This document shows positions 1,283 through 19,570 of a stretch of 64,000 nt of DNA, piece by piece. The notes under the pieces were generated by a model that did not search any database, was not told where the DNA came from, and was given only the letters and a program-made list of their open reading frames with translations. Every line of letters starts with the position of its first letter. The stretch's first letter is position 1. Origin of the DNA: Candidatus Woesearchaeota archaeon (GTDB taxonomy: Archaea > Nanobdellota > Nanobdellia > Woesearchaeales > GW2011-AR15). The position numbers were made by a program, and so were the translations under genes. The stretch spans positions 57,335-121,334 of the forward strand of contig JAVZBY010000002.1 in NCBI GenBank assembly GCA_038874655.1, given 5' to 3'.

Positions 1283-1447
1283 ATGAAACAACAATCAAAA
1301 GAAATTTCAATTTTAAATGTTAGATTGCCTGATGAAATTATTTCTTGGATAGATGAACTTGTCAAGAATGAAATTTTTAATTCAAGATCTGAAGCTATTA
1401 GAGAATTTTCCCGAGAATATGTCTTAAAAATGAGAGGTTTGAAATAA
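1283..1447 (+). CDS. Ribbon-helix-helix (CopG/Arc/MetJ-like) DNA-binding protein, 54 aa
   Basis: Too short for the ORF track. My translation is MKQQSKEISILNVRLPDEIISWIDELVKNEIFNSRSEAIREFSREYVLKMRGLK. It shows a beta-strand (LNVRLP), helix A, and the typical SRSEAIR start of helix B. Confidence 0.6.
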   Translation: MKQQSKEISILNVRLPDEIISWIDELVKNEIFNSRSEAIREFSREYVLKMRGLK

Positions 1448-1468
1448 TTAAATAATAAAAAAAACAAA

Positions 1469-1732
1469 ATGCCTGACAAAATTATTTCAGTTAGAATGCC
1501 AAAGTCATTAATAAATGAATTAAAAGAATTAGCAGATAAAAATCATTATTTAGATGTTAGTGAAGAAGTCAGAGCATTACTTAGACAAAAATACTTAGAG
1601 CATCAAGATCCTTATTCAATTAAATTAATGGCTATAAAAGAAAGCATTTCAAAACATGCGGTTCCTGAAAAAATAAAATCCTTGAAAGAAGACCTAAAAA
1701 AACTATTGGAGGAATTAAATGCTTTACAATAA
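1469..1732 (+). CDS. Ribbon-helix-helix protein with C-terminal helical extension
   Basis: IISVRMPKSLINELKELADKNHYLDVSEEVRALLRQ fits the RHH strand-helix-helix pattern. The gene overlaps the next gene by 14 nt. Confidence 0.55.
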   Translation: MPDKIISVRMPKSLINELKELADKNHYLDVSEEVRALLRQKYLEHQDPYSIKLMAIKESISKHAVPEKIKSLKEDLKKLLEELNALQ

Positions 1733-4700
1733 TTTTATTCAAAATAAAGCGAGAATTAAAAAAATTAAAATACATAAATATTCATGGTTATTATTTTTTG
1801 TTATAATCCTAATTAGTAGTTTAACTACAAAATACTTTATTGATGCAAATGCACAAGAAATCAACCAAACAATAATTAATCAATCTATTAATCAAACAAT
1901 TTTAAATTCAACATTAATAGTTTGGCACACTAACAATACTTTTGTTAATGAAACTATAATCTTTTACGCGTTATACAAAAACCAAACAAACCAACACATA
2001 ACAATATTAGATAATGCAACATGTATTATAGAAATTGAAAATCAAAAAAATTTAATGCAATTTGATCAGTCTAATAAAACTTATTTCATAGAAAAAACCT
2101 TTTTTGAAAATAAAACTTATAATTATAATATTAATTGCAATTCAACAAAATATCAATCCAAAGAATTTACAGATATTATTTTAATAAGGTTAAACAATTT
2201 ATCAAATAACTATTTACCAAATAACTCGTTATTGAATTATTCAACAAATTTTTCATCTAATACTACACTATCAAACATAACAAATAATAGTTCTCAAAAT
2301 ATATCTCAAAATTTAACTAATTTAATTGATTTGGATAATGATGGCTTTAATAATTCAATAGATTGTGATGACTTAAATCCAAACATAAACCCAGGAAAAA
2401 AAGAAATTCTTTATAATAATATTGATGATGATTGTAATATTTATACAAATGATTATTTAATTTTAAATTTAAATACAGACAAATCATTATATCAGCCAAA
2501 TGAGGTTGTAAAAATAACTATAAACTCCATAAATTTCTCTGACACATATCTAACAATAAACACACCAACAAATATATCTTATGTTTATATCTTTACAAAT
2601 AAAACATACCCCTTAACTCATAATTTTTCATTAACACAATCTAGCGGAAGATATACTATAGAAGCGATAAACTATCTTGAAAATTATTCTATACAAAATT
2701 CAATTGAATTTAATGTTACCTCAAACTTTAATGTTGATATTTTTGTTAATCAGACAGAAGCATATGAAAATGAAAAAATACACTTTAAAGCAATAATCAC
2801 AGGGAACATAGGAAATGTTAATATGATATGGAAAATGGATGACAATAATGAAGTTTACCAAAGTGAATTTGATTATAATTACACATATGCTAGATTATAT
2901 AATGTTGTTTTAATAGCGACAGATCAAGGTGGAAATCAAATAGTAAAAACAAAGCAAATAGCAATAAACAAAAAATACTTTTTAAGAATAAAAGTTATTG
3001 ATAATTCTACAAATGAAATTATATCTAATGCTACAATTAGACTAGATACAATAACACAAAAAGTAAATTCAACAGGTGAATTTGAATTTTTTATAACAAA
3101 TAAAACCTATAATATAAAAGTATTAGCAGATAACTATTATAGTTATGAAGACGATTTAAAAATTAATAATTCTTTATTATTTACTGTAAAATTAGTTAAG
3201 AACTTAGATTATGTTATTCCAGAAATTTATTTATTAAGCCCACAAAATAATACAGAAATAACCTCAACTAATAATCTTGAAATAAAATTCAAATTTAATG
3301 ATAACTCAAATGCAGATTGTTCATTATTAATTTCAAATGGAGATCAATGGTGGCAAGAATATCAAACATTATATAATTTATCTTCAAATTCAGAATACTT
3401 ATTTAAACTAAATTTATCTGATCTTTCAGATATTAATGATAAATTAATCTATAAACTAAAATGTATTGATGATGATGAAAACATAGCATATACCCAAAAT
3501 TATTTTTTAAATATTTTAAACAATCAAAAGTTAAATCAAGAAAATAATGTAGAAATAACACAAACATCTTCCAATGATACAGAACAAGAAACAACTTATC
3601 AAGTCATAGAAAACATATATAGTGTGATTCCAGATTTTGACACTTATAGTCCAGATGACAAGAAAATAGTTGAATACTTAGACATGGAAACTTTAATTAA
3701 AGATGCAAAAAGAAAACTTGAAATGGCTAACAGAGATCTATTTAATTTAAGATATAAACCTGACACAGAATCAATATTACAAGCAAGAGATGAAATCTAT
3801 CAAAGAATAGAAAAAATAAAAGATGAAACTCCTTTATCTGTAAGCACGAAGAAAAAAGTAAACTTTGTTAAATACGTAGATGAAAACGAAATTGAAAATT
3901 ACTTTGAAGAATATATAAAACTAAAAAACTTAAACATAGATAAAAATCTAAAAAAGAAATTAATAGAACAAAACAAACTTCTGCAGAAAAAATCAACTAT
4001 TGAAACAACAGCATACAATGTAGAAATTAAATATATTTCTGGCAGAATACAAGATATTACTTTATTAGTAAGGAATATTGATTCAGATTTATTATCAAAT
4101 CTAAATTTAGTTGAATTTGTTCCAAAAGATATAGAAGAGACAACTGACAACATGGTTTTTATAACCCAAGCACAAATATTAAATAAAGATCCTGTAATTG
4201 AATATGATTTATCAAAATTAAATGAGATTGTTTATTATTTTAAAGAATCTATTTCATTAGATGATTTACCTAAAATAAAACCTTTATTGATAACAACAAA
4301 ATTAGATGAAACCTCAAACAAAATAACAGGATTTGCTATATTTGATAATCTTGGTTTTTCAGAAACAAACAAAAAAATATTCATAATTGAATTAATAATT
4401 ATTTTTATCTTGTTAGGAATTTATTTATACTTCTATTTCACAAATAGAGAAACAATTGTTATAACAAATAATAATGATAAAAATAGTAATAAAAATCAAA
4501 ACAATGAATTCCAAGCATATACAAAAGATATGTCAAAACATTACTTAAATGTTAGACAATATGAATTTACTAATGAGAGCATATCAAAAGAAAATTCCCA
4601 AATAAATAAATTCTCACAAGCAAAAACTTTTGTAGATAATGAAAAAGTAAATTACATTTTTTCAGTTTTATCAAAAGCAGAGCATGACATCTCTAATAAG

Positions 4701-5036
4701 CAAATAAAAAATGCAGCTTTAAAATATCATGAACTTAAATTTTTATATGAATTATTAAACAAAAAAGACCAAAAAATCATTAAACCCTATTTGATAAACT
4801 TAATTGACAAAATAACACTTTATCATATTAATGAATTGCATGACTTAGCTATTTATGAATTAACTATGGGCAATCTAGAAAATGCTCTAAATTATTATAA
4901 TGAAATAGAACAAGAATATGAAAAACTATCAGAAAAATCAAAAGATAAAATTTTTGGAAAATGCTGCCAATTAGCAATTTTAATAAAAAATAATTCACTA
5001 AATAATTCATTATTTATAAAAAACACTCAAAAATAA
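1719..5036 (+). CDS. Large surface protein: N-terminal signal/TM, sequon-rich ectodomain, TM, ~190-aa cytoplasmic helical tail
   Basis: The ORF is 1105 aa in DNA where stop codons should be frequent. Motifs seen: hydrophobic N-terminus WLLFFVIILISSL; DLDNDGFNNSIDCDDLNPNINPGKKE..DDDCN (DxDxDG/Cys metal-binding-like); a PKD-like segment (IHFKAIITGN..YNVVLIATDQGGN); a CarboxypepD_reg-like segment (LRIKVIDNSTNE..YNIKVLADNYY); an Ig-like repeat (VIPEIYLLSPQNNTE..KCIDDDEN); and a TM IFIIELIIIFILLGIYLYFYF near aa 887. Confidence 0.75.
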   Translation: MLYNNFIQNKARIKKIKIHKYSWLLFFVIILISSLTTKYFIDANAQEINQTIINQSINQTILNSTLIVWHTNNTFVNETIIFYALYKNQTNQHITILDNATCIIEIENQKNLMQFDQSNKTYFIEKTFFENKTYNYNINCNSTKYQSKEFTDIILIRLNNLSNNYLPNNSLLNYSTNFSSNTTLSNITNNSSQNISQNLTNLIDLDNDGFNNSIDCDDLNPNINPGKKEILYNNIDDDCNIYTNDYLILNLNTDKSLYQPNEVVKITINSINFSDTYLTINTPTNISYVYIFTNKTYPLTHNFSLTQSSGRYTIEAINYLENYSIQNSIEFNVTSNFNVDIFVNQTEAYENEKIHFKAIITGNIGNVNMIWKMDDNNEVYQSEFDYNYTYARLYNVVLIATDQGGNQIVKTKQIAINKKYFLRIKVIDNSTNEIISNATIRLDTITQKVNSTGEFEFFITNKTYNIKVLADNYYSYEDDLKINNSLLFTVKLVKNLDYVIPEIYLLSPQNNTEITSTNNLEIKFKFNDNSNADCSLLISNGDQWWQEYQTLYNLSSNSEYLFKLNLSDLSDINDKLIYKLKCIDDDENIAYTQNYFLNILNNQKLNQENNVEITQTSSNDTEQETTYQVIENIYSVIPDFDTYSPDDKKIVEYLDMETLIKDAKRKLEMANRDLFNLRYKPDTESILQARDEIYQRIEKIKDETPLSVSTKKKVNFVKYVDENEIENYFEEYIKLKNLNIDKNLKKKLIEQNKLLQKKSTIETTAYNVEIKYISGRIQDITLLVRNIDSDLLSNLNLVEFVPKDIEETTDNMVFITQAQILNKDPVIEYDLSKLNEIVYYFKESISLDDLPKIKPLLITTKLDETSNKITGFAIFDNLGFSETNKKIFIIELIIIFILLGIYLYFYFTNRETIVITNNNDKNSNKNQNNEFQAYTKDMSKHYLNVRQYEFTNESISKENSQINKFSQAKTFVDNEKVNYIFSVLSKAEHDISNKQIKNAALKYHELKFLYELLNKKDQKIIKPYLINLIDKITLYHINELHDLAIYELTMGNLENALNYYNEIEQEYEKLSEKSKDKIFGKCCQLAILIKNNSLNNSLFIKNTQK

Positions 5037-5037
5037 A

Positions 5038-8000
5038 ATGTTTAAAAAGATAAAAAAAGAACTAAAAAAAGAGGAAAATAATAAAAATAAGGATAAAAAT
5101 AGTGGCATATTTAGATTCATGTATAAATTTAAAAAAATAGATTTTGCTAAACTTAACTTAAATATAGAGATTATTCTTTCAAATTTATTAATTATTTTAC
5201 TAATTGTTATTGCTATAATTTCTTTACTAATTTTAAGAGATTTTATAGGATATGTTCCTGGCTATAATCAAGCTCAAGGTGGTAGAATTACAGAATTAAA
5301 CATATATCAAGTTTATCCTGCAAGTATATGGAATGGTGTATATGGAATTGCATTACAAGCGCCTGTATTTAATACATCTTGGTTTATTTATGCAAATCCA
5401 GCAGGTATGTCTGAAATAAATCCTATTTATCCTTGTTTTGAGCCAGAGATTGAACATGAATTGTATGCAACCACTTTAAGCCCTTCACAAATAGTCTGGG
5501 AAAATATTACAGCAGCAACACCACAAATGTTAGATGATTATGTGGGTATTTCTTATAATGAATCCATGTCAGCAACGAAAAATTTCATTTATACAATGAC
5601 TGTTGATATTGGAACAAGAACAATTCCAAATGTTCCTACAATGTATTTAAGGCAATATGATAATCCAGGTAGCAGAGAATTTCCAGTAGGTATTTTACAA
5701 TATAATGGAAATATTATTATGGTTTCAAAAATAAACCCAAGTTATTTAACAGGCTATAGACCAGATAAAATCTTTAATTTTGAAATGATTGTTCCAGTTC
5801 CAATTAATACAACTAATTTGAAATATAATTTATATGTTGATCCTTTTGATTACTGTCCTCAAGGAGAGGCAGGAGAGAAAAAAATTCCAAGTAATATTCA
5901 AGGTTATGTTAGAGATAATCAAACACAGCAATTATTAGAAAATGCATTGGTTGCAATAGGAACAAGAATTTATATTACTGGGCCAGATGGAATTTACAAT
6001 ATTACTAACATACAACCAGGTAATTATTATATTGTAGCCATAAAAACAGGATTTAATAATTTTGTTTCTAATGTAACTATTCCAGAAAACACAACTATAG
6101 AATATAATATTAGTATGGAACTTTATCAAGAGCCATTAACAGGAACAGGCCCAGGAATTGGAACAGGGATTGGCCCTGGACAAGATGCACCAGGAACACA
6201 AACAAAATCAGGTGAAGGTCCTGGAATTGGTCCAGGTATTGGTCCTGGAATTGGGCCTTTTATTGAAAAACCACAAGAATTTGGAATTGATCACTGGCTT
6301 TCTTTAGATAAATTAAAAAAGAAAATCAAGATTGGATATTTCTTTACAGATAATTTATTAATATTTAGTTTCAGAAAAGAAACAGCAAAAATACAAATAA
6401 AAATTACAGGAAATGCATCAAAAATTTTAGAATTAAGTGATACACAAGCAACAATAGAACAAAATAAATATGCTAATATTACAATTAGAGGGTTTGGTTT
6501 AGAAAAAGGTGTTTATACTGGATTTTTAGAATTATCTGGAGATTTTAATGATACTTTGCCAATAGAAATAACAGTTACAGATGAAGAAAAATTACCTATT
6601 GAAGCAATGTTGATGCAATTAGATGTTTTAACAAAGCATCCATTAATGGGAAATAAGTTTAAATTTAGAGTGAATCTACAGAATTTATTAATAGAAGATT
6701 CTTATAATGTAAGATTAGACTATTATATTAGAGGGGTTGAAGCAGAAACTTCTAATTATTCAATGTATGTTGGCAATGATACTTTAACATTGTTTACTTC
6801 AGAATCAATAATAAAGGAAACATTTATTCCACCAGATTGGTCAAAAGGTGAATACTATTTAATTGTTGAAGCAAATTATTTAGATTTAAATGCAAGAACT
6901 TCTACAATTTTTGAAGTTTATGAACCTATCTATAAATATAAAGTATTAGGTAAATTAGAATTGTGGAAATTATTATTAGCTTTATTGATTTTAGCTTTGT
7001 TAATAATTATTATTTTATTGATTAGGCATAGAATTAATGCAACTAAAAGGTTCCATGCAAAAGTTGAATATAACCTATTGCCAAAAAAAGGTCCAAGATC
7101 TTTGTATGTAGGAAAAATTGCAGAAACAGAAATAGATACTTATTTTGATATGGATAAATTAACTGTTCATACTATTATAGCAGGTTCTACTGGAGGTGGT
7201 AAATCTATTTCAGCACAAGTGATTGTAGAAGAATGTCTATTAAAAGGAGTTGCTGTTGTTGTTTTTGATCCTACAGCACAATGGACAGGAATGCTTAGAA
7301 AATGTACAGATGAAAAAATGCTATCCTTTTACCCAAGATTCCATATGACTAAAAAAGATGCTCGTGCATTTAATGGAAACATCAGAGCAATAAAAAATCC
7401 TAGAGAAAAAATAGATTTAATGAAATATTGGAAACCTGGCGAAATCCAAGTATTCACTACAAGTACATTAGATCCAAAAGATATGGATATTTTTGTAGCT
7501 AATACAGTTAGAGAAGTATTCCATTCAAATTTACAAGAATACAGAGGATTAAGAATGTTAATGGTTTACGATGAAGTTCATAGATTATTGCCCAAATTTG
7601 GTGGCTCAGGTGAAGGTTTTGTCCAAATTGAAAGAGCATGTAGAGAATTTAGAAAATGGGGTATTGGTGTAATGCTAGTTTCACAAGTTTTAGCAGACTT
7701 CGTTGGACAAATTAAAGCTAACATTAACACAGAAATTCAAATGAAAACCAGGGATGAAGGTGATTTGCAAAGAATTGAAACAAAATACGGCAAAAGCTAC
7801 ATTCAAGAGTTAGTTAAAGCACCAGTAGGAAGTGGTATGGTGCAAAATTCTGATTGGAACAGAGGTAAACCCTATTATGTTACATTTAGACCAATTATGC
7901 ACAGTGTAGTAAGATTAACAGATCAAGAATTAGAACAATACAATAAATATAATGAAATTGTTGATGATTTATCATATCAATTAGAACAATTAGAACAAGA

Positions 8001-8697
8001 AGGAAAAGATGTTTTTGATTTAAAATTAGAATTAAAATTAGCATTAGACAAAATAAAATCAGGAAGCTTTAACATGGTTGAAATTTATTTAGAAGGGTTA
8101 AAACCAAGAATAGAAAAAATATGGCAAGAGCTTGGAAAAACACCTAAAAAAAGAGAAATTGAATTGGTTTCAGAAGAAGAGTTAAAATCAGCAATTGAAT
8201 CAGCAAAAAAAGAAAGTGAGCAATTAAAAACAACACAAACAAATTCAGGAACCGAGGAGAAAAAAGTCCTCGGTTTAAATGACGAAGTTCCTCCAAACAA
8301 AATATTGAAATTAGTAAATGGCACATTAGTTGTTAAATTAAAAGCATTGTATGATGAAATAAACGCATTAAAAGATGAAGAATTTAAACAACATGTAAAT
8401 GAAGACAAAAATGACTTTTCAGTGTGGATAAGAGATGCATTAAGCAATGACAAATGGGCTGATATTGCAGACACAATATTAACAAAAGAAGATTATTTAG
8501 CATTTTTAGAAGCATTAGATCAAGGAAAAGAAAAAACCTTCAAAGTAAAAACACCAAGACCAAAACCCTTTTCAAGTAAAAAAGATACAGGGACAAATAC
8601 ACAACAACAAAACACAAATCAAGAAAACACAAAACAACAAACAACAGAAAATCAATCTTCACAGAATTCGCAAACAAATCAACCAAATACAAATTAA
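5038..8697 (+). CDS. Membrane-embedded HerA/FtsK-superfamily (DUF87-like) P-loop ATPase with ~570-aa ectodomain and a C-terminal HVNxxKNDFxxW module
   Basis: TM1 is ILSNLLIILLIVIAIISLLIL. The ectodomain contains a CarboxypepD_reg-like segment (IQGYVRDNQTQQ..GNYYIVAIKTGF) and GPGIG repeats. TM2 is LWKLLLALLILALLIIIILLI (nt ~6961-7023). ATPase motifs are Walker A GSTGGGKS (7183..7206), FDPTAQW, Walker B MLMVYDEVH (7561..7581) and GIGVMLVSQ. The start codon lies 1 nt after the upstream stop. Confidence 0.8.
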   Translation: MFKKIKKELKKEENNKNKDKNSGIFRFMYKFKKIDFAKLNLNIEIILSNLLIILLIVIAIISLLILRDFIGYVPGYNQAQGGRITELNIYQVYPASIWNGVYGIALQAPVFNTSWFIYANPAGMSEINPIYPCFEPEIEHELYATTLSPSQIVWENITAATPQMLDDYVGISYNESMSATKNFIYTMTVDIGTRTIPNVPTMYLRQYDNPGSREFPVGILQYNGNIIMVSKINPSYLTGYRPDKIFNFEMIVPVPINTTNLKYNLYVDPFDYCPQGEAGEKKIPSNIQGYVRDNQTQQLLENALVAIGTRIYITGPDGIYNITNIQPGNYYIVAIKTGFNNFVSNVTIPENTTIEYNISMELYQEPLTGTGPGIGTGIGPGQDAPGTQTKSGEGPGIGPGIGPGIGPFIEKPQEFGIDHWLSLDKLKKKIKIGYFFTDNLLIFSFRKETAKIQIKITGNASKILELSDTQATIEQNKYANITIRGFGLEKGVYTGFLELSGDFNDTLPIEITVTDEEKLPIEAMLMQLDVLTKHPLMGNKFKFRVNLQNLLIEDSYNVRLDYYIRGVEAETSNYSMYVGNDTLTLFTSESIIKETFIPPDWSKGEYYLIVEANYLDLNARTSTIFEVYEPIYKYKVLGKLELWKLLLALLILALLIIIILLIRHRINATKRFHAKVEYNLLPKKGPRSLYVGKIAETEIDTYFDMDKLTVHTIIAGSTGGGKSISAQVIVEECLLKGVAVVVFDPTAQWTGMLRKCTDEKMLSFYPRFHMTKKDARAFNGNIRAIKNPREKIDLMKYWKPGEIQVFTTSTLDPKDMDIFVANTVREVFHSNLQEYRGLRMLMVYDEVHRLLPKFGGSGEGFVQIERACREFRKWGIGVMLVSQVLADFVGQIKANINTEIQMKTRDEGDLQRIETKYGKSYIQELVKAPVGSGMVQNSDWNRGKPYYVTFRPIMHSVVRLTDQELEQYNKYNEIVDDLSYQLEQLEQEGKDVFDLKLELKLALDKIKSGSFNMVEIYLEGLKPRIEKIWQELGKTPKKREIELVSEEELKSAIESAKKESEQLKTTQTNSGTEEKKVLGLNDEVPPNKILKLVNGTLVVKLKALYDEINALKDEEFKQHVNEDKNDFSVWIRDALSNDKWADIADTILTKEDYLAFLEALDQGKEKTFKVKTPRPKPFSSKKDTGTNTQQQNTNQENTKQQTTENQSSQNSQTNQPNTN
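6139..6258 (+). repeat. In-frame elastin-like GPGIG/GTGIG repeat linker in the ATPase ectodomain
   Basis: GTGPGIGTGIGPGQDAPGTQTKSGEGPGIGPGIGPGIGPF. The stretch is locally GC-rich within AT-rich DNA. Confidence 0.9.
8296..8520 (+). other. HVNxxKNDFxxWIxD module, copy 1 (C-terminus of the HerA-like ATPase)
   Basis: KILKLVNGTLVVKLKALYDEINALKDEEFKQHVNEDKNDFSVWIRDALSNDKWADIADTI. Confidence 0.85.
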
Positions 8698-8753
8698 TAA
8701 ATAAATACATAAAAAATTAATAAATCAATATTTAATAATATTATTAATAAAAA

Positions 8754-9650
8754 ATGGCACAAATTGAAACTAAAAGTTCAAATTACTTTTATCTAAAAGA
8801 TGGAAGAATAATAAAAACAATAGAAGAACTTCCAGATATTTTAGAAAATACTAGTGATCAAGTTTTTTATGAACATGTTAATCTTTATAAAAATGATTTT
8901 GCTAAATGGGTTTATGAAGTTTTTAATGAAAATGAACTATCAAAATTATTGGGCAATATAAAATCAAAAGAAGAAACAATTAGAACATTGAGAGCATATC
9001 TTAAAATAAAAGAGCAGAAAAAATTAAAAGAAGAAAAACAAAACAAAAATGAAAACATAAACGAAAATCTTTCTATTCATCAAACAAATGAAACTTTCAT
9101 AAAAAACACAGAAATAAAAATAGAAGACAAAAAAAAAGAAATAAATGAAACCTCACTAAAAAAAGAAATAAATGAAGAAAAAATAAATGAAACTCAAAAC
9201 CAATTTAATAATAATATAAAAAAAGAGATACAAAATAATAATGAAAAAATTTCTGATAAATTAGAAACTACTCTAAAAAGTCAAGAAACAATTTATAATG
9301 AAAATAATACTGAAAACCCAGATGATTTCTTTAAGAAAAATCCAATCATAATTGATAACATCATAGAAGCAAAAAAAGAAAACATAGTTTTAGAACCATT
9401 AACATTTATAGATTATGATAAAAATAATCCCAAAAAAACAATAGAGATTTTCAAAGACACATATGCAAAAGCATACCAAAGAATGAGTTTTCTTAGAAAG
9501 TCAGGATTTGATACTTCTTTAGTAGAAATAATGTTATTTAGGGTTTTGCCAAAAATCAAATTATATGAATCAACAAACGAAGAAAAAGATGCCTTAACAG
9601 TAAAAAGATTAATTAATGAAGTAATAGAAGAGTTAAATAATTTAAAATAA
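8754..9650 (+). CDS. Soluble protein with N-terminal HVNxxKNDFxxW module and Lys/Glu/Asn-rich middle
   Basis: FYLKDGRIIKTIEELPDILENTSDQVFYEHVNLYKNDFAKWVYEVFNENELSKLLGNIKSKEE lies at aa 11-83 (nt ~8784-9002). No TM segment is visible. Confidence 0.7.
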   Translation: MAQIETKSSNYFYLKDGRIIKTIEELPDILENTSDQVFYEHVNLYKNDFAKWVYEVFNENELSKLLGNIKSKEETIRTLRAYLKIKEQKKLKEEKQNKNENINENLSIHQTNETFIKNTEIKIEDKKKEINETSLKKEINEEKINETQNQFNNNIKKEIQNNNEKISDKLETTLKSQETIYNENNTENPDDFFKKNPIIIDNIIEAKKENIVLEPLTFIDYDKNNPKKTIEIFKDTYAKAYQRMSFLRKSGFDTSLVEIMLFRVLPKIKLYESTNEEKDALTVKRLINEVIEELNNLK

Positions 9651-12045: not shown

Positions 12046-12226
12046 TATATCACCTCTTTTCTGCTAAACATTTAATAAAAGTTTAATTTATTATTAAAAA
12101 ATTATTAATATTTATATTTTTCTTTTTTTAATTTTCTTCCATTGAATTTTTTTATATTTATTCTTGTTAAATTTATCAATTTTATTGATAAAAATATATA
12201 AAAATTTATTTTTTTATAAAAAAATA

Positions 12227-12234
12227 TTTAAATA
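12227..12234 (+). promoter_or_regulatory. Candidate TATA box (AAAAATATTTAAATAT context)
   Basis: TTTAAATA lies ~90 nt upstream of the 12320 start. The same extended box AAAAATATTTAAATAT recurs at 29731-29746. Confidence 0.3.
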
Positions 12235-12319
12235 TCAAAAATATTGTAAAAAATTGATATTTTAATTAAATAGTTAGCTAATTGAAATTAGGAATTAGTA
12301 ATTTTATTGAGTTGATCAT

Positions 12320-12547
12320 ATGGAAAAACCAAAACCAAAAAAAGAGAGAATTTGGCTTTATATAGATAAAGAAATATTAGATTGGGTTTATCAAAAGATG
12401 AAAGAAAAAGTCTATGCAGATGAATCCCATTGCTTTGAAAAACTAGTTATGGATGAAATTAACAGAGAAAAACAATTGAAAGATCAAAAAGAACTTTTAA
12501 ATCAGAGCAATAAAAATCAAAACTCTAAGAATCTTAAAAAAGATTAA
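12320..12547 (+). CDS. Small putative ribbon-helix-helix protein
   Basis: ERIWLYIDKEILDWVYQKMKEKVYADESHCFEKLVMDEI is compatible with strand-helix-helix. It is the first gene of the KaiC-like cassette. Confidence 0.45.
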   Translation: MEKPKPKKERIWLYIDKEILDWVYQKMKEKVYADESHCFEKLVMDEINREKQLKDQKELLNQSNKNQNSKNLKKD

Positions 12548-12573
12548 ATTAAAAATAAAAAAGAGGTTTAAAA

Positions 12574-13410
12574 ATGAATCAAAATTCAAACAATATTCAA
12601 ATTAATGAATTAAAACAGGGTAATGAAAAATTAATTCCAGAAAAATCAAATGAAAAAAATAAAGAAATTTATTTTCTAACTGGAATTCAAGGTTTTGATG
12701 ATTTAGTAGGAAAAGGATTTCCAAAAGGTTCACAAATTTTAGTTTCTGGCGGCCCTGGAACAATGAAAACAACATTTTGTTTACAAATTCTTACAAACCT
12801 ATCAAAAAAAGGACACAAATGTTTATATCTAACCTTTGAAGAGCCAGAAGAAAATCTGATAAGAAATGTTTCTTCATACGGATGGAACATTCAAGATCTT
12901 ATAAAGAACAAAAAACTAATGATAAAAAGTTTAGACCCATTTAAAATGTCTAGAAATGTTGAAACATTATTAGCACAAGCTCGTGGTGAATTACTAATTG
13001 AGATAAATGAAGCAAAAAATTTATTGCCAAATGACTTTGATCCAGAATTTGTAGTTATTGATTCATTGTCAGCAATTTCAGCAGGTTTTTTCGGAAAAAA
13101 AGAAGGTTATAGGGCATATATGTCACAAATTTTTGACACTTTTAGAAAAATGAAAATTAACACTTTCTTAATCACAGAGATTGAGCATAGCACAACAAGA
13201 TATAGTCAAAGTGGTGTTGAAGAGTTCTTAGCAGATGGAGTGATTGCATTATACAATTTTAGACAAGGGAATCAAAGAATAAATGCAATTGAAATAATAA
13301 AATTAAGAGGAGTAGAGCATAAAAAAAGAATCGTTCCTTTTAAAGCAATTGCAAATCAAGGAATTATAGTTTATCCATTAGAAGAATTATTTATACAAGA
13401 TTCACAATAA
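12574..13410 (+). CDS. Single-domain KaiC/RadA-like (RecA-superfamily) ATPase with a deviant Walker A
   Basis: GIQGFDDLVGKGFPKGSQILVSGGPGTMKTTFCLQ (P-loop at 12748..12771, with M where the GK[ST] glycine is expected). Also LYLTFEEP (catalytic Glu region), Walker B FVVIDSLS and IIKLRGVEH. AGAGG lies upstream of the ATG. Confidence 0.8.
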   Translation: MNQNSNNIQINELKQGNEKLIPEKSNEKNKEIYFLTGIQGFDDLVGKGFPKGSQILVSGGPGTMKTTFCLQILTNLSKKGHKCLYLTFEEPEENLIRNVSSYGWNIQDLIKNKKLMIKSLDPFKMSRNVETLLAQARGELLIEINEAKNLLPNDFDPEFVVIDSLSAISAGFFGKKEGYRAYMSQIFDTFRKMKINTFLITEIEHSTTRYSQSGVEEFLADGVIALYNFRQGNQRINAIEIIKLRGVEHKKRIVPFKAIANQGIIVYPLEELFIQDSQ

Positions 13411-13420
13411 AAAAATAAAA

Positions 13421-16400
13421 ATGAAAAAATACTTTAATCAAAATTATAGAAGATTTATCTTTTTATTATTATTTTTTATATTGATAAATATAGTCTCTTC
13501 TTTACCAGGAAACTTATGTTTTGAAAGTCCATGTATTTGTGGTTCAGCATGTAATTATGGATATGAAATAAATAATGGTTTTAATACAATAGATTCTTGT
13601 CAAGATGGACCAGAATACACATATGAGTATGTTCATGATATTAATATATCAAATCTAAACTTTTCTTATTTTAGAGGAGGAGATATTATAAAAATAGATG
13701 CTTATGTTGATTGTGATCCAGATGGAGATGAAATAACATTTGTTTATCATAATGGAAGTTCTTGGGTTCCTTTTTATAATGCAAATTGTAATGTTAATGG
13801 TAAAACACATATCATAACAACAAAAACTCTTGATAATTTTGAAGGTACTCACACAATTAGGATAACTTTGGCATACAATGGTATTTCAAATATGATATGT
13901 GCTTATAATCATGATTCCTTATACTCAGATACAGATGATATTTCTTTTTATGTTTATGATAAAAATAAAGATTTAGAAAAACCGAAAGTAAATATAATCT
14001 CTCCTGAAAATAGTATTACCTATTTCTATGAAAATAATTTAATAATCAACATAAGTGTTAATATTTCAGATAACATTAAAGTACAAAATGCTTCAGCATT
14101 AATTACATGGGGCTCTAAAAACATGACATTAGATTTAATTAATAGTTCAGGAATATTTAAAGCAAATTTTACAAATACAAGTGATTTTGCTAAATATAAT
14201 TTAACAATAATTGCTTATGACAATTCTTCAAATGTTAATAATACAGAATCTATTATCTTTTTTATTAATAAAACAAAAGATATAAAAATTATAACTCCTA
14301 CTGAAAATAAATTATACCCTTATAAAGACTTTAACATAGAATATATTATAGATAACAATGAAACAAATATTTATTATTCTTGGGTAGAATTAAATTCTGG
14401 TTTAGCAAGCTTTGATGGGAACAATAAAAAAATTTCAGTGGAAGAGCAATCAGATGACTCTGTTAATTGTTATGAGATAAATAATATTTCACAATCTTTT
14501 CAATTAGAAAAAGATACTTATTTATCACAGCTAGAAATAATGCTTAAAAAATCTGGAAACCCTGATAATGCAAAACTAGACATAAAATCAGATCTCAATA
14601 ATGAAGTTTTAGCAACAGGGATAATTGATTTAAATTCAGTTAATCAAGAATTTAATTGGGTTGTTATAGATTTAAACGAAAAAATAAAATTAAATAAAAG
14701 TACAAAATATTGGCTTTTTTTAAATACTACAGAATCAAATATAGATAGTGAAAATTACTATGAATGGATGCTTACATCTAATATTTATCAAAATGGTTCC
14801 TATATAAATAATGTTTCAAAAGATTTACTCTTTATAATATATGATTATTATAGCTTTAACTTGACAGCATCACCATTATCATCAGTAATGGATTTAATTG
14901 TATATGCCGAAACAGACCAAGGTCAATTAAGCTCAAACCTTATAACATTTTATCTTGATGATAATTCTCCAGTAATAAATGAATATAATTTTACACCGAA
15001 TAACTATAAAGATATTGATCCAGGAACCACAATAAATTTTACTGTTAATGCAACTGATAATTTAGAAATTTCTAATGTTTATCTTATTTATAGATTGAAT
15101 GATTTTAATTGGATAGAAAAGATAATGGATTATTCTAATGGTATTTATAAAACAAATTTGACATTAAATCAAACAAATTTAACATTCTTTTTTAGAGCTT
15201 TTGATACAAGTAATAATTTAGTTGAAACTTCTGACACAAAAATAGAGTGTGATTATGAAAATAATTGGTACATTGAACCTTCTAAAATTAATACAACCTC
15301 AGGTTTAATAGGAAAAAATAAATCCTTAGGTATGATAAATATTTACTTAGATTCAGATTATGATCTTGATATTAATGTTTCTTATATTTCTAATTTATCA
15401 ATTCTTTTAAATGGAAGTGATTCTCTCTTATTAAAAATACCTTCTAATAAAAATTCTTCTTTTGAACTAGTTATCTTAAGTTCAAACAAAACATCAAGAG
15501 ATAATGTAATCTTAAATTTTAACTCTTTAAATGATTCAAATCCTAAAAACAATCAGTTAAATTTTACATATGTTTCTTTACTTTCAGGACCATATCTTTT
15601 TTTAGAGATAATAGATTATTATCCAGTAGTTTATCAAGGTGAATATCTAGCAAATCTAAAAGCAAAGTTAATAAATCTAGGAAATGAAACAGCTTACAAT
15701 ATAACTATTAATTGGCTTTTACCTGAGGGAATTATTCCAAAAAGAAATTCAACACAAAAATTTTCAGAACTACAGCCAGGCGGAATTTCTTATATCGTAT
15801 CTCAAATTTCAGCTCAAGTTTCTGAAACAGCATCATTAGGTGTTAAAGAATTGAAAGTTATTGCAAATGCTTCTGATTCATTTGGAAATTATTCAGATGA
15901 GACAATAAAATACATAGAAATAAAATCAAATCAACAACCCATCATTAGTTATTCATCAGGACAAGGTTCAAAATCCGCAGACACTTATATTCCAACAATA
16001 ATTAAAAATGAAGACAATCTAAATATAAATTTAAATAAATTAGAAATTAAAAAATTAATCCCTTATACAACAAATATAACTTTCATAAATAATATCTCAA
16101 ACAAAGACTATATTGTAGAAATTGAAATAGAGGGATTGTTTAAGGCATATTATAACCTATCGGATTATTTATTTTATATTCCAAAAAATAAAGAAAAAAA
16201 AATAAATCTAACAATTAATCTACCTTCATACTATGAATTAGGCATAAAAAAATATAAACTAATAGTTAATCTTTATGACATAAATTCTCTTTATGATATA
16301 AATTATTCATATGATTTAATTAATACTAATGAAACTGATGAAATAAAAAACAAATTAAAAACATTTGACAAAAATAAATTTAGTTTATTAAAACAGATAA

Positions 16401-17863
16401 AAAAAGAATTCGACATAATTGTTTTAGATAACGATGAAAAGATATATTGTTTAAACAATGCATCTGAAAAAATAAATCTTTTAGATATAGATAAAACAGA
16501 TATTAATCAAAAATATCATCAAGCAGAAATAAATTTTAAAAATCAAGAATATGATTTAGTCTTAGAATTTTGTGATTATCTAAACAATTTTATTGACAAA
16601 TATGAAAAAACTAGAAATTCATTAGACTATTTAAAAAATGAGATTAGTCAATTAAAAAAAGAAGGATATAAAACAGAAGAAATTGAAAATTACTATTTAT
16701 TAATAAACGAAACTATCTATAAAGGTAATCTAGAAAAAGCAAATGAACTTTTAGAAAAAACAAATCTACTTAAATCTAATTTGGAACAACCTGCACAAAT
16801 AAAAATAACCAATTTTATTATTAAAAATAAAAATTCTTTGATAATAACAGCTATCTTTTTACCTATATTTATTTTATCACTAAGCAGATTAATTTATCTA
16901 ACAAAAACAGAAACTAAACTAAAAAACTTAGAAAAAGAAAAACAAAAATTATTAGAGTTATTAAAAAAAATGCAAGATTATTATTATGATAAACATTTTT
17001 TAAGTTCAGATTTATATAAAATATCAATCCATAAAATAAGATTTAGATTAGGTCAAATAGAAATTTCTTTGCTAAAATTAAGAAATAAATTAAAAAATAC
17101 TAATTTAACTAAAAATGATATTGAAAACTTGATAAAAGAGATTCAAGAAGACTACTATATCAAAAAAATTATCTCAGAGCAAACATATGAAGATTTAATA
17201 AAATATTATTATAAACAATTAAATGATTTAGAACAAAAAAATAAGTTAGAACAAAAAAATAACTTAATAAATAAAACAATAGAAAAAATAGATAATAAAA
17301 AGATTAGACTAAAATTAACTTCTACAAATAATTCTATTTTATATTCAAAAAAATCAAATAAATATGATAATAAAGAACAAATTAAAACAATACATCCAAG
17401 TAAATATGAAAAAAAAGAAGCATCCTTAAATAATAATACAAAAAAAAATGAAATAAACGAAAAAGAAGAAAAGAATCATTTTTTAAATAATACTTTATAT
17501 AATATCAATGAAACAACAAAGCAAAACTCAAAAAATAATAAATCAGAATTAAACTTAGATAATATAAAAGATAATATAGAAGTTAACATAGACTTTTATA
17601 AAAGATGCGAAAAAAATAAAGCTTTTATTTTAAATAATGGATTAAAATTATATTCAATTTTTGATTTATATGAAAAATTAGTTTTTAATTTAATTGATAA
17701 TCAAACTTTTGAATATCATGTAAATCAGTATAAAAATGATTTTTCAACTTGGATATCAGATGTGTATAACTATAATAAACTGGCTAAAGAAGTAAAAAAA
17801 ATTAATTCAAAAGAACAATTAATAGACTTTTTTAAAAAAATAATCGAATATAATAAAAAATAA
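13421..17863 (+). CDS. 1,480-aa surface protein: signal peptide, Cys-rich head, Ig-like repeats, TM, ~340-aa cytoplasmic coiled coil ending in an HVNxxKNDFxxW module
   Basis: FIFLLLFFILINIVSS signal. Head motif CFESPCICGSACNYGYE..DCDPDGDE. Ig-like repeats (LEKPKVNIISPENS.., NSPVINEYNFTPNN..). TM LIITAIFLPIFILSLSRLIYL near aa 1139. The C-terminal module is at nt ~17621-17860. Confidence 0.75.
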   Translation: MKKYFNQNYRRFIFLLLFFILINIVSSLPGNLCFESPCICGSACNYGYEINNGFNTIDSCQDGPEYTYEYVHDINISNLNFSYFRGGDIIKIDAYVDCDPDGDEITFVYHNGSSWVPFYNANCNVNGKTHIITTKTLDNFEGTHTIRITLAYNGISNMICAYNHDSLYSDTDDISFYVYDKNKDLEKPKVNIISPENSITYFYENNLIINISVNISDNIKVQNASALITWGSKNMTLDLINSSGIFKANFTNTSDFAKYNLTIIAYDNSSNVNNTESIIFFINKTKDIKIITPTENKLYPYKDFNIEYIIDNNETNIYYSWVELNSGLASFDGNNKKISVEEQSDDSVNCYEINNISQSFQLEKDTYLSQLEIMLKKSGNPDNAKLDIKSDLNNEVLATGIIDLNSVNQEFNWVVIDLNEKIKLNKSTKYWLFLNTTESNIDSENYYEWMLTSNIYQNGSYINNVSKDLLFIIYDYYSFNLTASPLSSVMDLIVYAETDQGQLSSNLITFYLDDNSPVINEYNFTPNNYKDIDPGTTINFTVNATDNLEISNVYLIYRLNDFNWIEKIMDYSNGIYKTNLTLNQTNLTFFFRAFDTSNNLVETSDTKIECDYENNWYIEPSKINTTSGLIGKNKSLGMINIYLDSDYDLDINVSYISNLSILLNGSDSLLLKIPSNKNSSFELVILSSNKTSRDNVILNFNSLNDSNPKNNQLNFTYVSLLSGPYLFLEIIDYYPVVYQGEYLANLKAKLINLGNETAYNITINWLLPEGIIPKRNSTQKFSELQPGGISYIVSQISAQVSETASLGVKELKVIANASDSFGNYSDETIKYIEIKSNQQPIISYSSGQGSKSADTYIPTIIKNEDNLNINLNKLEIKKLIPYTTNITFINNISNKDYIVEIEIEGLFKAYYNLSDYLFYIPKNKEKKINLTINLPSYYELGIKKYKLIVNLYDINSLYDINYSYDLINTNETDEIKNKLKTFDKNKFSLLKQIKKEFDIIVLDNDEKIYCLNNASEKINLLDIDKTDINQKYHQAEINFKNQEYDLVLEFCDYLNNFIDKYEKTRNSLDYLKNEISQLKKEGYKTEEIENYYLLINETIYKGNLEKANELLEKTNLLKSNLEQPAQIKITNFIIKNKNSLIITAIFLPIFILSLSRLIYLTKTETKLKNLEKEKQKLLELLKKMQDYYYDKHFLSSDLYKISIHKIRFRLGQIEISLLKLRNKLKNTNLTKNDIENLIKEIQEDYYIKKIISEQTYEDLIKYYYKQLNDLEQKNKLEQKNNLINKTIEKIDNKKIRLKLTSTNNSILYSKKSNKYDNKEQIKTIHPSKYEKKEASLNNNTKKNEINEKEEKNHFLNNTLYNINETTKQNSKNNKSELNLDNIKDNIEVNIDFYKRCEKNKAFILNNGLKLYSIFDLYEKLVFNLIDNQTFEYHVNQYKNDFSTWISDVYNYNKLAKEVKKINSKEQLIDFFKKIIEYNKK
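17621..17860 (+). other. HVNxxKNDFxxWIxD module, copy 3
   Basis: AFILNNGLKLYSIFDLYEKLVFNLIDNQTFEYHVNQYKNDFSTWISDVYNYNKLAKEVKKINSKEQ. Confidence 0.85.
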
Positions 17864-17896
17864 AAAAATCAAATTATAAAATAGTGAAAATTAAAA

Positions 17897-19570
17897 ATGA
17901 AAAAAAGAGGTAATTTAATTAATAATTTAATTAATTTTGTTTTAAATATTATTACTTTATTAAATATAAATTTATTTTTTAATCAATCTTTTTTTTATTC
18001 ATTAATAAAAAAAATCTTTAAATTAAATAGATTATTTATTTTTTTAACATTCATAATTTTACATTCTTTTTTAATAAATGCATTTTTGAATCAAAGTACT
18101 ATTTTTAATAATCAAAGTAAAGATATAATCAAAGATTCATTGGAAAATTATATAACTAAAACTAGTTTATTAATTTCTATTAATAATACTATTCAAAAAA
18201 TTAGAAATCTTGGTTATAATGCATATATCTTTAATGATCTTTATAATGAATTATTTTTAATTGATGACTCTGATACTAGTTCTATAAATAATTTATATTT
18301 AATTTATAAAGAAACAGAAACAAATTATAATTATTCAATCAATTTATTAAACATACATAAAAATAATTTAAAATATCTTAAATCAATTCAAAATAATGAA
18401 AATAATCCGTTTTGTGATATAACCCTTTTAAAAAATATTCAAGAATATGAAAATACTATTTATATAGCAGAAAACAAAATAAAAAATTCATTATATTATG
18501 ATGCAATCAACATATTAACCACTTTAAATAATGAATTAAATCCTTTTATTGAAAATTATTTAAATAATCTAACTTCTATATTAAACAAAAACAATATTAA
18601 GGATAATTATGAGGTATTAGAGTTTATAAATGAGTATTATACTTCAGATAAAGAAAAAAATTTCGTTAAAAATTTAATTTTAAAATTAGATAATACAAAT
18701 TCAAATTTTAAAACAAAATATTTTATTTCAGATGAATCTATAGTTATTTTTAATTATATCTTCGGTGAAGAAAAAAATAAAATTCAAAGAATAAAAAATA
18801 ATGATATCTTAAAATACAACATAAAAGAGATTTCAGAAGTTTGTAATGAAATTTCTTATATAAATTATGTTTTATCGAAATATATAGAAATATCTATTTA
18901 TAACGATTATTTATTTAAAAATAATATTTCTAATAATTTATTAAATGATTTAAAAAATGAAATCATATATTATTTACAAAAAAATAGATTAGACAGAATT
19001 GAAACTCTTTTACAAGACACTAATAAAATTATAGAAAAAATAAAATCTTTTGAGATAAGATATAATAATCTTAAAATTGAAATTAATGAATTAAAATCAA
19101 AAAATATAACCGATTTTGATTCGAATAAAGAAATAATTCAACAAACACAAATTTTTTCACAAGAATTAGAAAATATTTATGAAGAATACAAAAAATTTGA
19201 ATTAGATAAAGCTAATAATAAATTAATAGAGTTAGAAAATCAACTTATCTCTTATAAATCAAGATTAATTGAAACAAAGATTAGACAAAAAAATTTTTTA
19301 AAAATAAACTTTAAAATTTTATTTTTAATATTTATCTTATCTATAACTTTGTTTATCATTTCATATCCCACTTTAAAAACTTATTACAAAAAAAAGAGAA
19401 TTACTTATCTTGAATCTAGAAAAAAAGCAATAATAGAGCAAATTAAACAACTTCAAAGAGACTATTTTATAGATAAAAAACTCTCAAGGAAAAGATACAA
19501 ACAACTTTTAAAAATAAATCAAACAAAACTTATTGAGATAATTAGAAATTTAGAGATTTTAAATAAATAA
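17897..19570 (+). CDS. Membrane protein with a long helical/coiled-coil ectodomain, C-terminal TM and a short cytoplasmic DYFxDKKLS motif
   Basis: N-terminal hydrophobic segments are followed by a long helical region. The TM ILFLIFILSITLFIISYPTL is followed by IKQLQRDYFIDKKLSRKRYKQLLK. Confidence 0.55.
   Translation: MKKRGNLINNLINFVLNIITLLNINLFFNQSFFYSLIKKIFKLNRLFIFLTFIILHSFLINAFLNQSTIFNNQSKDIIKDSLENYITKTSLLISINNTIQKIRNLGYNAYIFNDLYNELFLIDDSDTSSINNLYLIYKETETNYNYSINLLNIHKNNLKYLKSIQNNENNPFCDITLLKNIQEYENTIYIAENKIKNSLYYDAINILTTLNNELNPFIENYLNNLTSILNKNNIKDNYEVLEFINEYYTSDKEKNFVKNLILKLDNTNSNFKTKYFISDESIVIFNYIFGEEKNKIQRIKNNDILKYNIKEISEVCNEISYINYVLSKYIEISIYNDYLFKNNISNNLLNDLKNEIIYYLQKNRLDRIETLLQDTNKIIEKIKSFEIRYNNLKIEINELKSKNITDFDSNKEIIQQTQIFSQELENIYEEYKKFELDKANNKLIELENQLISYKSRLIETKIRQKNFLKINFKILFLIFILSITLFIISYPTLKTYYKKKRITYLESRKKAIIEQIKQLQRDYFIDKKLSRKRYKQLLKINQTKLIEIIRNLEILNK

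Follow-up and report, generated by a model that had tools for sequence, protein, structure and literature searches.

How DPANN archaea attach to their hosts and exchange material with them is an unresolved question. Cryo-electron tomography has revealed symbiont-side envelope complexes of unknown composition, e.g. a barrel-shaped docking platform in ARM-1 (bioRxiv 10.1101/2024.05.20.594898). Among genomic candidates, only the SPEARE giants have been discussed to date, and their function is disputed (PMC6642349 vs PMC10266531). Here, we analysed a stretch of 64,000 nucleotides (nt) from a Candidatus Woesearchaeota archaeon (GCA_038874655.1, JAVZBY010000002.1, positions 57,335-121,334, forward strand), hereafter the window, which encodes a membrane ATPase with the features of the SPEARE family in the midst of genes for very large surface proteins. 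A preliminary description had seen in it two consecutive cassettes of the same logic (small ribbon-helix-helix (RHH) proteins, an ATPase and large membrane proteins) and a third unit, and had suggested that all units form a single trans-envelope apparatus. The question is whether this locus is one machine or several. The account that we favour, with moderate confidence, has three linked but distinct modules: an ATPase surface operon (module A), a KaiC sensor (module B) and an adhesin unit (module C). The cells concerned are tiny DPANN archaea of a symbiotic type, and the genes of the window are good candidates for the apparatus that lets such cells engage a host.

A conserved operon around the membrane ATPase

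Module A (cassette 1, 1283-11492) consists of seven open reading frames (ORFs) and is met by a convergent small gene (lengths in amino acids, aa):

1283-1447, plus strand: RHH1, 54-aa RHH protein (Pfam RHH_1 27.3 bits, cutoff 20.5)
1469-1732, plus strand: RHH2, 87-aa RHH protein with a helical tail (Pfam RHH_1 21.3 bits, cutoff 20.5)
1719-5036, plus strand: S1105, predicted 1105-aa surface protein with two transmembrane (TM) segments (hydropathy, Pfam, sequon bias)
5038-8697, plus strand: SPEARE-type membrane ATPase, 1219 aa (Pfam DUF87/HerA E 4.6e-12)
8754-9650, plus strand: HVN298, soluble 298-aa protein with an N-terminal HVN/DUF5752-like module and a conserved C-terminal domain
9831-10886, plus strand: CC351, soluble coiled-coil protein
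10953-11492, plus strand: TMCC179, N-terminal TM segment and coiled coil (hydropathy)
11499-11696, minus strand: third RHH protein, 65 aa (Pfam RHH_1 E 0.0039), convergent with the module A operon

All ORFs of the preliminary description were found at the positions given there, and its operon-like spacing was confirmed: the gaps between the seven ORFs of module A are 21, -14, 1, 56, 180 and 66 nt. All window proteins were compared by tblastn with 79 species-level Woesearchaeota/Nanoarchaeota loci (numbered with the prefix L), which made up the main synteny sample; 54 of them had enough flank upstream of the ATPase gene, 61 could be evaluated within 3.5 kb and 43 within 9 kb downstream of it. 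RHH1, RHH2 and S1105 were all present upstream of the ATPase, ordered and on the same strand, in 46/54 loci. Counted singly, RHH1 was found in 49, RHH2 in 48 and an S1105 orthologue, directly upstream, in 49 of these 54 loci. Downstream of the ATPase (≤3.5 kb), a gene with an HVN module (see below) and CC351 were present in 46/61 loci each. In five further loci, fetched through exact-protein look-up, the order was retained at an ATPase identity as low as 42-47%. The conserved unit is RHH-RHH-S1105-ATPase-HVN (1-3 genes)-CC351, usually followed by the winged helix-turn-helix (wHTH) and giant genes of module C. Since it is conserved across dozens of species-level genomes, the arrangement is more than chance, and module A is a real, strongly conserved operon. 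TMCC179 was found in 6/84 loci only, those of the closest relatives, and is a lineage-specific accessory.

CC351 is the most constant partner of the ATPase. In other lineages, an adhesin-like ectodomain and the ATPase are part of one polypeptide, and CC351 follows directly after two such fused giants, a 4,862-aa Woesearchaeal protein in L090 (E 5e-27) and a 7,818-aa protein in L091 (E 1e-22) that comes from a cluster containing Hadarchaeales sequences. In L092, a 337-aa coiled-coil gene follows a 4,126-aa member of the ATPase family, and BLAST gives no link between it and CC351; on a contig of Candidatus Nanosalina, a CC351-type gene was not found downstream of the giant.

To survey the ATPase more broadly, one genome per GTDB species was scanned, and at least 543 species-level genomes were found to encode a relative. 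The best 79 of those are DPANN metagenome-assembled genomes (MAGs), with an ATPase domain identity of 65-95%. Full-length homologues of the 1219-aa protein (42-73% identity) are encoded by Woesearchaeota, Pacearchaeota and Nanoarchaeota MAGs, and the closest relatives of the window proteins come from Woesearchaeota/Nanoarchaeota MAGs. Several genomes carry tandem ATPase paralogues (L023, L025, L027, L034, L035). Many third-party MAG records titled ‘uncultured Methanosarcinales archaeon’ (L007, L011-L014 and others; one is titled ‘Saccharibacteria’) carry the operon with a 65-93% identical ATPase; their sequences are close to named Woesearchaeota/Nanoarchaeota records and their taxonomy is probably wrong.

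An origin from a mobile element or virus was rejected, as relatives of module A are absent from IMG/VR and plasmid matches were DUF87 proteins at ≤26% identity only. A defence system of the SIR2-HerA or DUF4297-HerA kind was likewise rejected: PADLOC returned only generic HerA matches (best E 7.7e-15, partial), the neighbours had no effector match and the ATPase is membrane-anchored.

The small proteins ahead of the ATPase, which the preliminary description had taken for RHH regulators in both cassettes, proved by profile to be RHH proteins: RHH1 and RHH2 match Pfam RHH_1, and s75 of cassette 2 was linked to the RHH1 family by hhalign (94.6% probability). Weak matches of RHH1 and RHH2 to the cell-division regulator CdrS and of CC351 to SMC, ASRP and Rad50 coiled coils, together with the behaviour of the operon as a lineage core gene set (≥543 species-level genomes), could be read as signs of a device for cell division or chromosome segregation, with an FtsK-like translocase, a CdrS-like regulator and an SMC-like partner. 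We consider this very improbable, since these matches are generic (~17-20 bits vs cutoffs of 100-700) and a division protein would be expected neither to have an ectodomain that ranges in the family from <100 to >5,600 aa of adhesin-type repeats nor to belong to an operon tied to PKD/Ig surface proteins and giant adhesins.

Hydropathy placed an N-terminal and a C-proximal TM segment in the 1105- and 1219-aa proteins of module A as well as in the 1480- and 557-aa proteins of module B. In S1105, TM 23-41 and TM 887-905 enclose an ectodomain that carries PKD/Ig domains and a MopE-like metal motif, and the last 200 aa form a cytoplasmic tail; this two-TM topology is retained in 37/41 orthologues. 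The TM-ectodomain-TM proteins have K/R-rich N termini and post-TM2 stretches, and in three of the four proteins N-glycosylation sequons per Asn amount to ~0.32-0.33 in the predicted ectodomains vs 0.10-0.18 in the tails. Because of these charges and the sequon bias, the N-in/C-in topology with a cytoplasmic tail, proposed before for the large proteins, can be assigned to the 1105-, 1219- and 1480-aa proteins; the 557-aa protein, whose middle part has a cytoplasmic/helical composition, is unsure. From the sequon bias, the ectodomains of S1105 and S1480 are predicted to be glycosylated.

The convergent third RHH gene, which the preliminary description did not mention, is the best-conserved of the locus, with 93-96% aa identity in L001 and L007 vs 44-78% for its neighbours. 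The window has a G+C content of ~17-30%, and Rfam and tRNA scans of it gave no match.

Relation of the ATPase to the SPEARE family

The ATPase is laid out as TM 45-63, a 580-aa ectodomain, TM 644-662, an FtsK/HerA-family domain (~664-1010), a helical hairpin and an HVN module (~1090-1165). A CarboxypepD_reg Ig-like domain is the sole Pfam match in the ectodomain, which also has a Gly/Pro linker. Walker A (GSTGGGKS) and Walker B (VYDEVH) motifs are present. Residues 664-1010, after TM2, align without indels across the family; Walker A is invariant and Walker B nearly so, and FDPTAQW, LLPKFGGSG, NINTEIQM and TRDEGDL are invariant or nearly so in the family alignment. The linker is a Gly/Pro-rich low-complexity segment, TGTGPGIGTGIGPG...GPGIGPGIGPGIGP, at residues ~379-425 (window 6170-6310), where the local G+C content rises to ~30%.

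An AlphaFold2 (AF2) model of the ATPase domain (pLDDT 72) matched HerA best in Foldseek (E 1e-9, TM-score 0.51), followed by defence-type HerAs, FtsK, VirB4 and TcpA, which all are translocases that work as hexamers; EssC-like chains were also among the matches. A PDB sequence search gave weak HerA matches only. Thus, profile and model comparisons place the enzyme in the FtsK/HerA superfamily. No curated subfamily came near its cutoff (NCBIfam scores of 15-34 bits vs cutoffs of 366-970): the HerA models scored 27-34 bits vs 800-970 over a partial region only, and neither NurA nor Mre11 nor Rad50 was found in Pfam scans of the window.

An exhaustive profile search of 1.8 billion representatives with the ATPase domain gave 2,854 clusters at E≤1e-3, of which 397 reached E≤1e-30. 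The best 150 clusters all match the complete 347-aa domain, typically near the C-terminus (median 165 residues after the domain). Complete family members are 452-6,253 aa long, and 44/162 have at least 2,000 aa; a TM-like segment lies ≤60 aa upstream of the domain in 141/162 members (87%), and each of the 183 members checked has a single ATPase domain. Of the family members, 31% have the HVN tail, and none of the giants does. Named members come from Woesearchaeota, Hadarchaeales and Candidatus Nanosalina, a nanohaloarchaeon. The 4,079-aa protein of the latter, P0225, has a C-terminal domain that matches the ATPase domain of the window in full (profile E 6e-134; BLASTP 51% identity over 362 aa). 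Its Pfam matches are DUF87 and ResIII, and the ResIII-type match led to the original ‘restriction enzyme’ label.

The SPEARE giants of Nanohaloarchaeota were described by Hamm et al. 2019, who noted similar cytoplasmic regions in Woesearchaeota and proposed DNA uptake or degradation (PMC6642349). Reva et al. 2023 re-read the cytoplasmic region as a VirB4/TraG-like ATPase with a coiled coil and proposed secretion in a role like that of a type IV secretion system (T4SS) (PMC10266531). By alignment and domain layout, the window ATPase is a short-ectodomain, split version of this architecture, and the earlier statement that no described system could be matched does not hold for it.

With an enzyme of this superfamily, module A might be a machine for conjugation or DNA exchange (T4SS-, Ced- or FtsK/SpoIIIE/TraB-like), in which the ATPase pumps DNA and the RHH proteins are DNA-processing accessories. 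VirB4, FtsK and TcpA are indeed among the structural matches, NCBIfam gives weak matches of the ATPase to TraD, TraC and CedD and of RHH2 to the conjugation factor TprA, and the two published proposals for SPEARE, a T4SS-like role and DNA uptake/degradation, point the same way. The scores are, however, far under the cutoffs (TraD 26 bits vs 366, TraC 22 vs 567, CedD 23 vs 600), and Pfam scans of the window revealed no relaxase, VirB6/VirB8-like protein, CedA-like polytopic channel, integrase or pilin. In addition, hundreds of species-level genomes carry the cluster on the chromosome and in synteny, and it is absent from viral contigs and from plasmids above the identity given above. We regard a DNA machine as unlikely.

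The HVN module

The element that had been noted to link the units, HVN..KNDF..W, turned out to be a module of ~75 aa that does so: it was located at residue 1119 of the ATPase, residue 41 of HVN298 and residue 1433 of S1480 (module B). A fourth copy, missed in the preliminary description, lies at residue 312 of the protein encoded by 51061-52134, and the module also occurs in many proteins of related loci. For DUF5752 (PF19027, cutoff 23), the 51061-52134 protein scored 26.8 bits and the 8754-9650 protein 18 bits, which is under the cutoff; the copies in the tails of the ATPase and S1480 were recognised solely by alignment with the other copies. Several ATPase orthologues and many other relatives are already annotated with PF19027. 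The AF2 model of the module (pLDDT 93) has two short strands and five helices, and a PDB fold search with it gave no match better than E ~1. A stand-alone HVN protein of ~100 aa is common in DPANN and also occurs in Altiarchaeales and in one Patescibacteria record. In L089, the module is fused to the N-terminus of KaiC (6485-7777). We read the module as a putative protein-protein adaptor. Nothing on DUF5752, a family with no function assigned, was found in the literature searched; it here gains a first functional context.

The KaiC cluster

The preliminary description had ended cassette 2 at 19570. The conserved form reaches to 28190 and comprises ten ORFs (module B, 12320-28190):

12320-12547, plus strand: s75, 75-aa small protein with predicted RHH fold, heading the cluster (hhalign 94.6% vs the RHH1 family)
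12574-13410, plus strand: single-domain KaiC-like ATPase, 278 aa (Pfam KaiC PF06745 E 1.1e-49, 169 bits, cutoff 26.6)
13421-17863, plus strand: S1480, 1480 aa, N-terminal TM or signal segment, 1100-aa ectodomain, TM 1140-1158, 320-aa helical tail ending in HVN
17897-19570, plus strand: S557, 557-aa helical protein with two TM segments (hydropathy)
19647-21464, plus strand: PAS/GAF sensor (Pfam)
21493-22347, plus strand: SBP_bac_3 protein (Pfam)
22352-23191, plus strand: p279, TM coiled-coil protein
23172-26987, plus strand: SBP-histidine kinase (Pfam)
27114-27524, plus strand: REC-only response regulator (Pfam)
27660-28190, plus strand: iKaiC, KaiC-like/DUF7504 protein without Walker A (Pfam; no GK[ST] motif)

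Here, too, the spacing is operon-like, with gaps of 26, 10 and 33 nt in the part called cassette 2, followed by 76, 28, 4, -20, 126 and 135 nt. The KaiC protein has a Walker A motif (GGPGTMKT) and a catalytic EE (FEEPEE). An assignment to circadian KaiC or ArlH was not obtained: the protein has a single domain, the NCBIfam models gave 146 bits vs 408 (KaiC) and 58 vs 215 (ArlH), and the window has no kaiA/kaiB or arl genes.

A metagenome scan anchored on KaiC gave 2 loci only, and the ectodomain of S1480 was taken as anchor in its place. It yielded 12 homologues besides the window's own, of which three neighbourhoods were examined (L087, L088, L089). In all three, which are the loci with called neighbours, KaiC precedes the S1480 homologue, and KaiC orthologues that adjoin S1480 homologues are 50-76% identical. 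The order after S1480 matches the window in L087 and L088, with identities of 61-63% for the histidine kinase (HK), 67% for the response regulator (RR) and 28-60% for iKaiC. L087 has s75 (79%), KaiC (76%), the S1480 homologue, a 448-aa protein, PAS, HK (63%), RR (67%) and DUF7504/iKaiC (60%), and continues with two minus-strand homologues of 28246-29031 and wHTH194 (62%), a match to the window order over 12320-30430. In L088, which shares a contig with L017, cassette 1 is followed by two metabolic genes and then by s75-KaiC-S1480-455 aa-141 aa-HK-RR-PAS/GAF. In L089, the order is HVN-KaiC, the S1480 homologue, a 496-aa protein, iKaiC, CARDB proteins, an HTH_38 protein and an 8,252-aa giant. 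S557 is weakly conserved in sequence and conserved in position (448-496 aa in relatives). Upstream of KaiC, s75 is retained in L001, L011, L017, L087 and L088; s75 itself has no Pfam match, and RHH_1 was matched by 3/12 members of its family.

Like cassette 1, cassette 2 is therefore part of a cluster whose gene order is conserved in relatives. Its predicted proteins make module B a KaiC-centred sensory/two-component cluster and not a second adhesion-ATPase machine.

In L001 (22390-23407), S1480 is a 213-aa N-terminal remnant with an iKaiC homologue immediately after it; ~14 kb of the window (the rest of S1480, S557, PAS, SBP, HK, RR) are absent there, and either L001 has undergone a deletion or the window an expansion. 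A helix motif of ~35 aa, ELEK(F/Y)..I...RE.KM.EL.K, forms the end of three otherwise unrelated proteins, TMCC179, the PAS-GAF protein and p279; a related coiled coil lies ahead of HisKA in the 23172-26987 kinase. The common C-terminal helix may be a signalling-helix interface.

The giant adhesin unit

Downstream of module B lie module C (29846-49494) and an accessory module:

29846-30430, plus strand: wHTH194, putative winged-helix regulator of the giant gene (weak Pfam HTH_24 and HVO_A0114 matches)
30470-44860, plus strand: giant, 4796-aa secreted Ig-repeat protein (CARDB, Big_13) with an N-terminal signal/TM segment and no C-terminal TM
44882-49494, plus strand: S620 (44882-46744) and S917 (46741-49494), further surface proteins
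51061-55297, plus strand: HVN357 (DUF5752 above the Pfam cutoff) and three paralogous secreted proteins, p265, p257 and p307

That this third unit is linked to the others was borne out: a giant homologue was found ≤9 kb downstream of the ATPase in 24/43 loci, and in relatives module A usually adjoins a wHTH + giant unit. wHTH194 was found in 22 loci; in 20 of them the next gene is a giant homologue, and the remaining two end at this point.

The giant and S917 share ~430 N-terminal aa and a C-terminal domain of ~180 aa (43% identity), and both are without a C-terminal TM anchor. S620 and a 635-aa polytopic membrane protein (55309-57216, minus strand) share ~190 aa (37% identity, E 1e-23). The paralogues p265, p257 and p307 (265, 257 and 307 aa) had no family match; together with HVN357 they recur as a set beside the ATPase operon in L050, L062, L065 and L074, and in L004 and L084 the genes for S1105 and the ATPase have a p265 homologue between them.

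The position of the giant gene after the operon could mean that module A exports, anchors or assembles the giant adhesins, with the ATPase acting as EssC/EccC do in type VII secretion. The missing C-terminal anchors of the giant and S917 would fit such a role, their shared C-terminal domain could dock on a membrane complex, and EssC-like chains appear among the fold matches. Against it, the N-terminal signal-like hydrophobic segment of the giant fits Sec export, the family has a single ATPase domain per member where EssC/EccC have tandem domains, no WXG100-like small substrates were found in the Pfam scans, and many lineages have the ectodomain as the N-terminal part of the ATPase protein itself, which is unlike an exporter and its cargo. 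We judge this role to be quite unlikely.

Links between the modules

Do cassettes 1 and 2 belong together? As a conserved feature, their consecutive arrangement was not upheld: of 43 loci, five have a KaiC gene in the 9 kb that follow the ATPase, and two have a close orthologue of the window KaiC there. Nor do they repeat a single design, since their ATPases come from different superfamilies (FtsK/HerA vs RecA/KaiC) and their large proteins have no detectable homology. Of the Ig-like repeats said to be shared, the motif itself was found, once each in S1105 and S1480 and 11 times in the giant; paralogy of S1105 and S1480 was rejected, as BLASTP found no homology and the best hhalign probability was 17.5%. 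Common to both cassettes are only the ~75-aa HVN module and the RHH fold, and by these comparisons the cassettes are analogous, not duplicated.

Because adjacency is rare, it is quite possible that cassette 2 is independent of cassette 1. In its full form, this explanation sees functionally independent neighbours, with cassette 2 as an unrelated KaiC/two-component insertion between cassette 1 and the giant unit and no single apparatus; we think it possible and hold it only tentatively. It is in line with L087, where housekeeping genes and not cassette 1 lie upstream of the KaiC cluster, with the lack of homology between S1105 and S1480, and with the wide distribution of stand-alone HVN proteins, which could make HVN a generic adaptor. 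Several findings speak for a connection instead. The ATPase and S1480 both bear an HVN module, as does KaiC in L089; in other lineages, ATPase paralogues have s75-type RHH genes upstream (directly so in L020, L022 and L035, and also in L071); in L071, three KaiC and two s75 genes lie between tandem ATPase paralogues (KaiC 12007-14151); and cassette 2 is followed by a wHTH194 homologue in L087 and by a giant further downstream in L089. Furthermore, three KaiC genes come directly after the ATPase in L081 (5198-6998), and two-component genes homologous to those of the window follow cassette 1 in L018, L072 and L082. These links are why we prefer three linked but distinct modules to mere neighbours.

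A candidate cis element upstream of RHH1

The region ahead of RHH1 contains a repeated element:

1088, 1110 and 1164 (1088-1175), plus strand: three exact copies of the 12-mer TTTATAATACAA, candidate operator/promoter element

The copies lie 108-195 nt upstream of RHH1 with a spacing of 22 and 54 nt, and an identical three-copy layout was found in L006. The window has 4 exact copies vs 0.30 expected, for a pattern picked post hoc. The fourth, 11921-11932, is intergenic and ahead of cassette 2. A 9-mer core was present upstream of RHH1 orthologues in 10/57 loci, often as the sole copy in the locus. Upstream of s75 orthologues the core is not conserved, and co-regulation of cassettes 1 and 2 through the element was dropped as unsupported. 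The repeats are a possible RHH operator or promoter element.

Proposed mechanism

In our model, six copies of the ATPase most likely assemble into a ring under the membrane, below twelve TM helices and six ectodomains; the analogy is with its solved relatives, all of which are hexameric. The ectodomains of S1105 and the ATPase would lie outside, CC351 and the HVN proteins inside. The adhesins would bind a partner cell or surface, and at the site of contact ATP hydrolysis would drive mechanical work or the movement of a polymer, DNA or protein, across the membrane of the symbiont. The RHH1/RHH2 pair probably autoregulates the module A operon, and module B is probably a sensor of surface or contact signals that controls A, C or both.

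A bolder version, which we put forward tentatively, is that the ATPase, CC351, S1105 and the HVN adaptors represent a new class of envelope-spanning, FtsK/HerA-driven translocation machine across DPANN and Hadarchaeales that occurs in fused (SPEARE-like) and split forms, serves symbiont-side host docking and transfer of cargo (DNA, protein or other) and has a KaiC/two-component contact sensor. A single trans-envelope apparatus made of all units may be envisaged.

Several points weigh against these readings. One complex of these proteins is a prediction. The module A operon encodes no polytopic channel protein, relaxase, nuclease or pilin. The ectodomains of fused giants showed only generic local Ig-repeat similarity to the giant of the window (11/50), so that orthology by a Rosetta-stone test was rejected and, since only generic Ig modules are shared, the argument of fused versus split is architectural and not based on orthology. 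P0225 is a nanohaloarchaeal giant with SPEARE features and not a published SPEARE accession; taxon and architecture make the link. Since the cassettes are rarely adjacent, the case for a functional coupling of modules A and B is made by the one 75-aa module that they share, by the RHH family and by a small number of fusions or insertions. The giant, having an ordinary N-terminal signal-like segment, needs no special exporter. Finally, a host association of the organism is presumed, and a role of SPEARE in host interaction has been proposed and is contested between the two papers cited above.

If the readings stand, the conserved part of SPEARE would be the motor of a broader multi-gene system with CC351, a PKD surface protein, DUF5752-type adaptors and RHH regulators. 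Hundreds of Woesearchaeal species have this gene set, and genes for giant adhesins and for a KaiC/two-component sensor cluster are physically linked to it. The locus supplies a parts list for multimer modelling, enrichment proteomics and fitting into tomograms.

Comparison with known systems

The ATPase family, its presence in Woesearchaeota and KaiC hubs are already known. In the literature searched, we found no description of the multi-gene operon of module A (coiled-coil partner, DUF5752 adaptors, PKD protein, RHH pair), of the split/fused relationship over the range of 452-6,253 aa, or of a recurrent linkage to a KaiC/two-component cluster and giant adhesins. The “novel secretion system” of arCOG01314 (Makarova et al. 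2015) has another composition (MoxR ATPase, vWA) and hence is not module A.

With the SPEARE giants, the window ATPase shares an extracytoplasmic adhesin-type part, a TM helix, a cytoplasmic P-loop ATPase and a helical/coiled-coil end. Unlike them, it has an ectodomain of only 580 aa without laminin-G, protease-like or toxin-like parts, and the giant adhesin is a separate gene (30470-44860). It carries an additional N-terminal TM segment and a C-terminal HVN/DUF5752-like module, seen on no giant member, and is part of a conserved seven-gene operon (RHH, RHH, PKD protein, HVN proteins, coiled-coil partner). A second VirB4/TraG-type ATPase has been reported downstream of the nanohaloarchaeal genes; the window has none.

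The FtsK-HerA translocases (HerA, FtsK/SpoIIIE, VirB4/VirD4, TcpA, EssC, Ced ATPase) share the P-loop fold and the Walker A and B motifs with the window ATPase, which is membrane-anchored as are FtsK, SpoIIIE, TraB, EssC and CedB. It differs from them in lacking the HAS-barrel/NurA context, a VirB4 N-domain, tandem ATPase domains and a CedA-like channel, and in having a large extracellular domain between two TM helices. Compared with DUF5752 of Pfam, the HVN module is here a unit of ~75 aa that occurs in fusion with ATPases of two kinds and with a receptor-like tail.

Module B, for which the preliminary description had named no counterpart, is close to an archaeal signalling hub of KaiC-like ATPases and inactivated KaiC domains that was proposed by Makarova, Galperin & Koonin 2017 (as cited in PMC5847659 and PMC6393860). 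As far as these citing papers describe the hub, module B resembles it in joining a single-domain KaiC, an inactivated KaiC-like protein, PAS sensors, an HK and a REC-only RR, and differs from it in that two very large proteins of the TM-ectodomain-TM type, an RHH protein and the HVN module are coupled to these.

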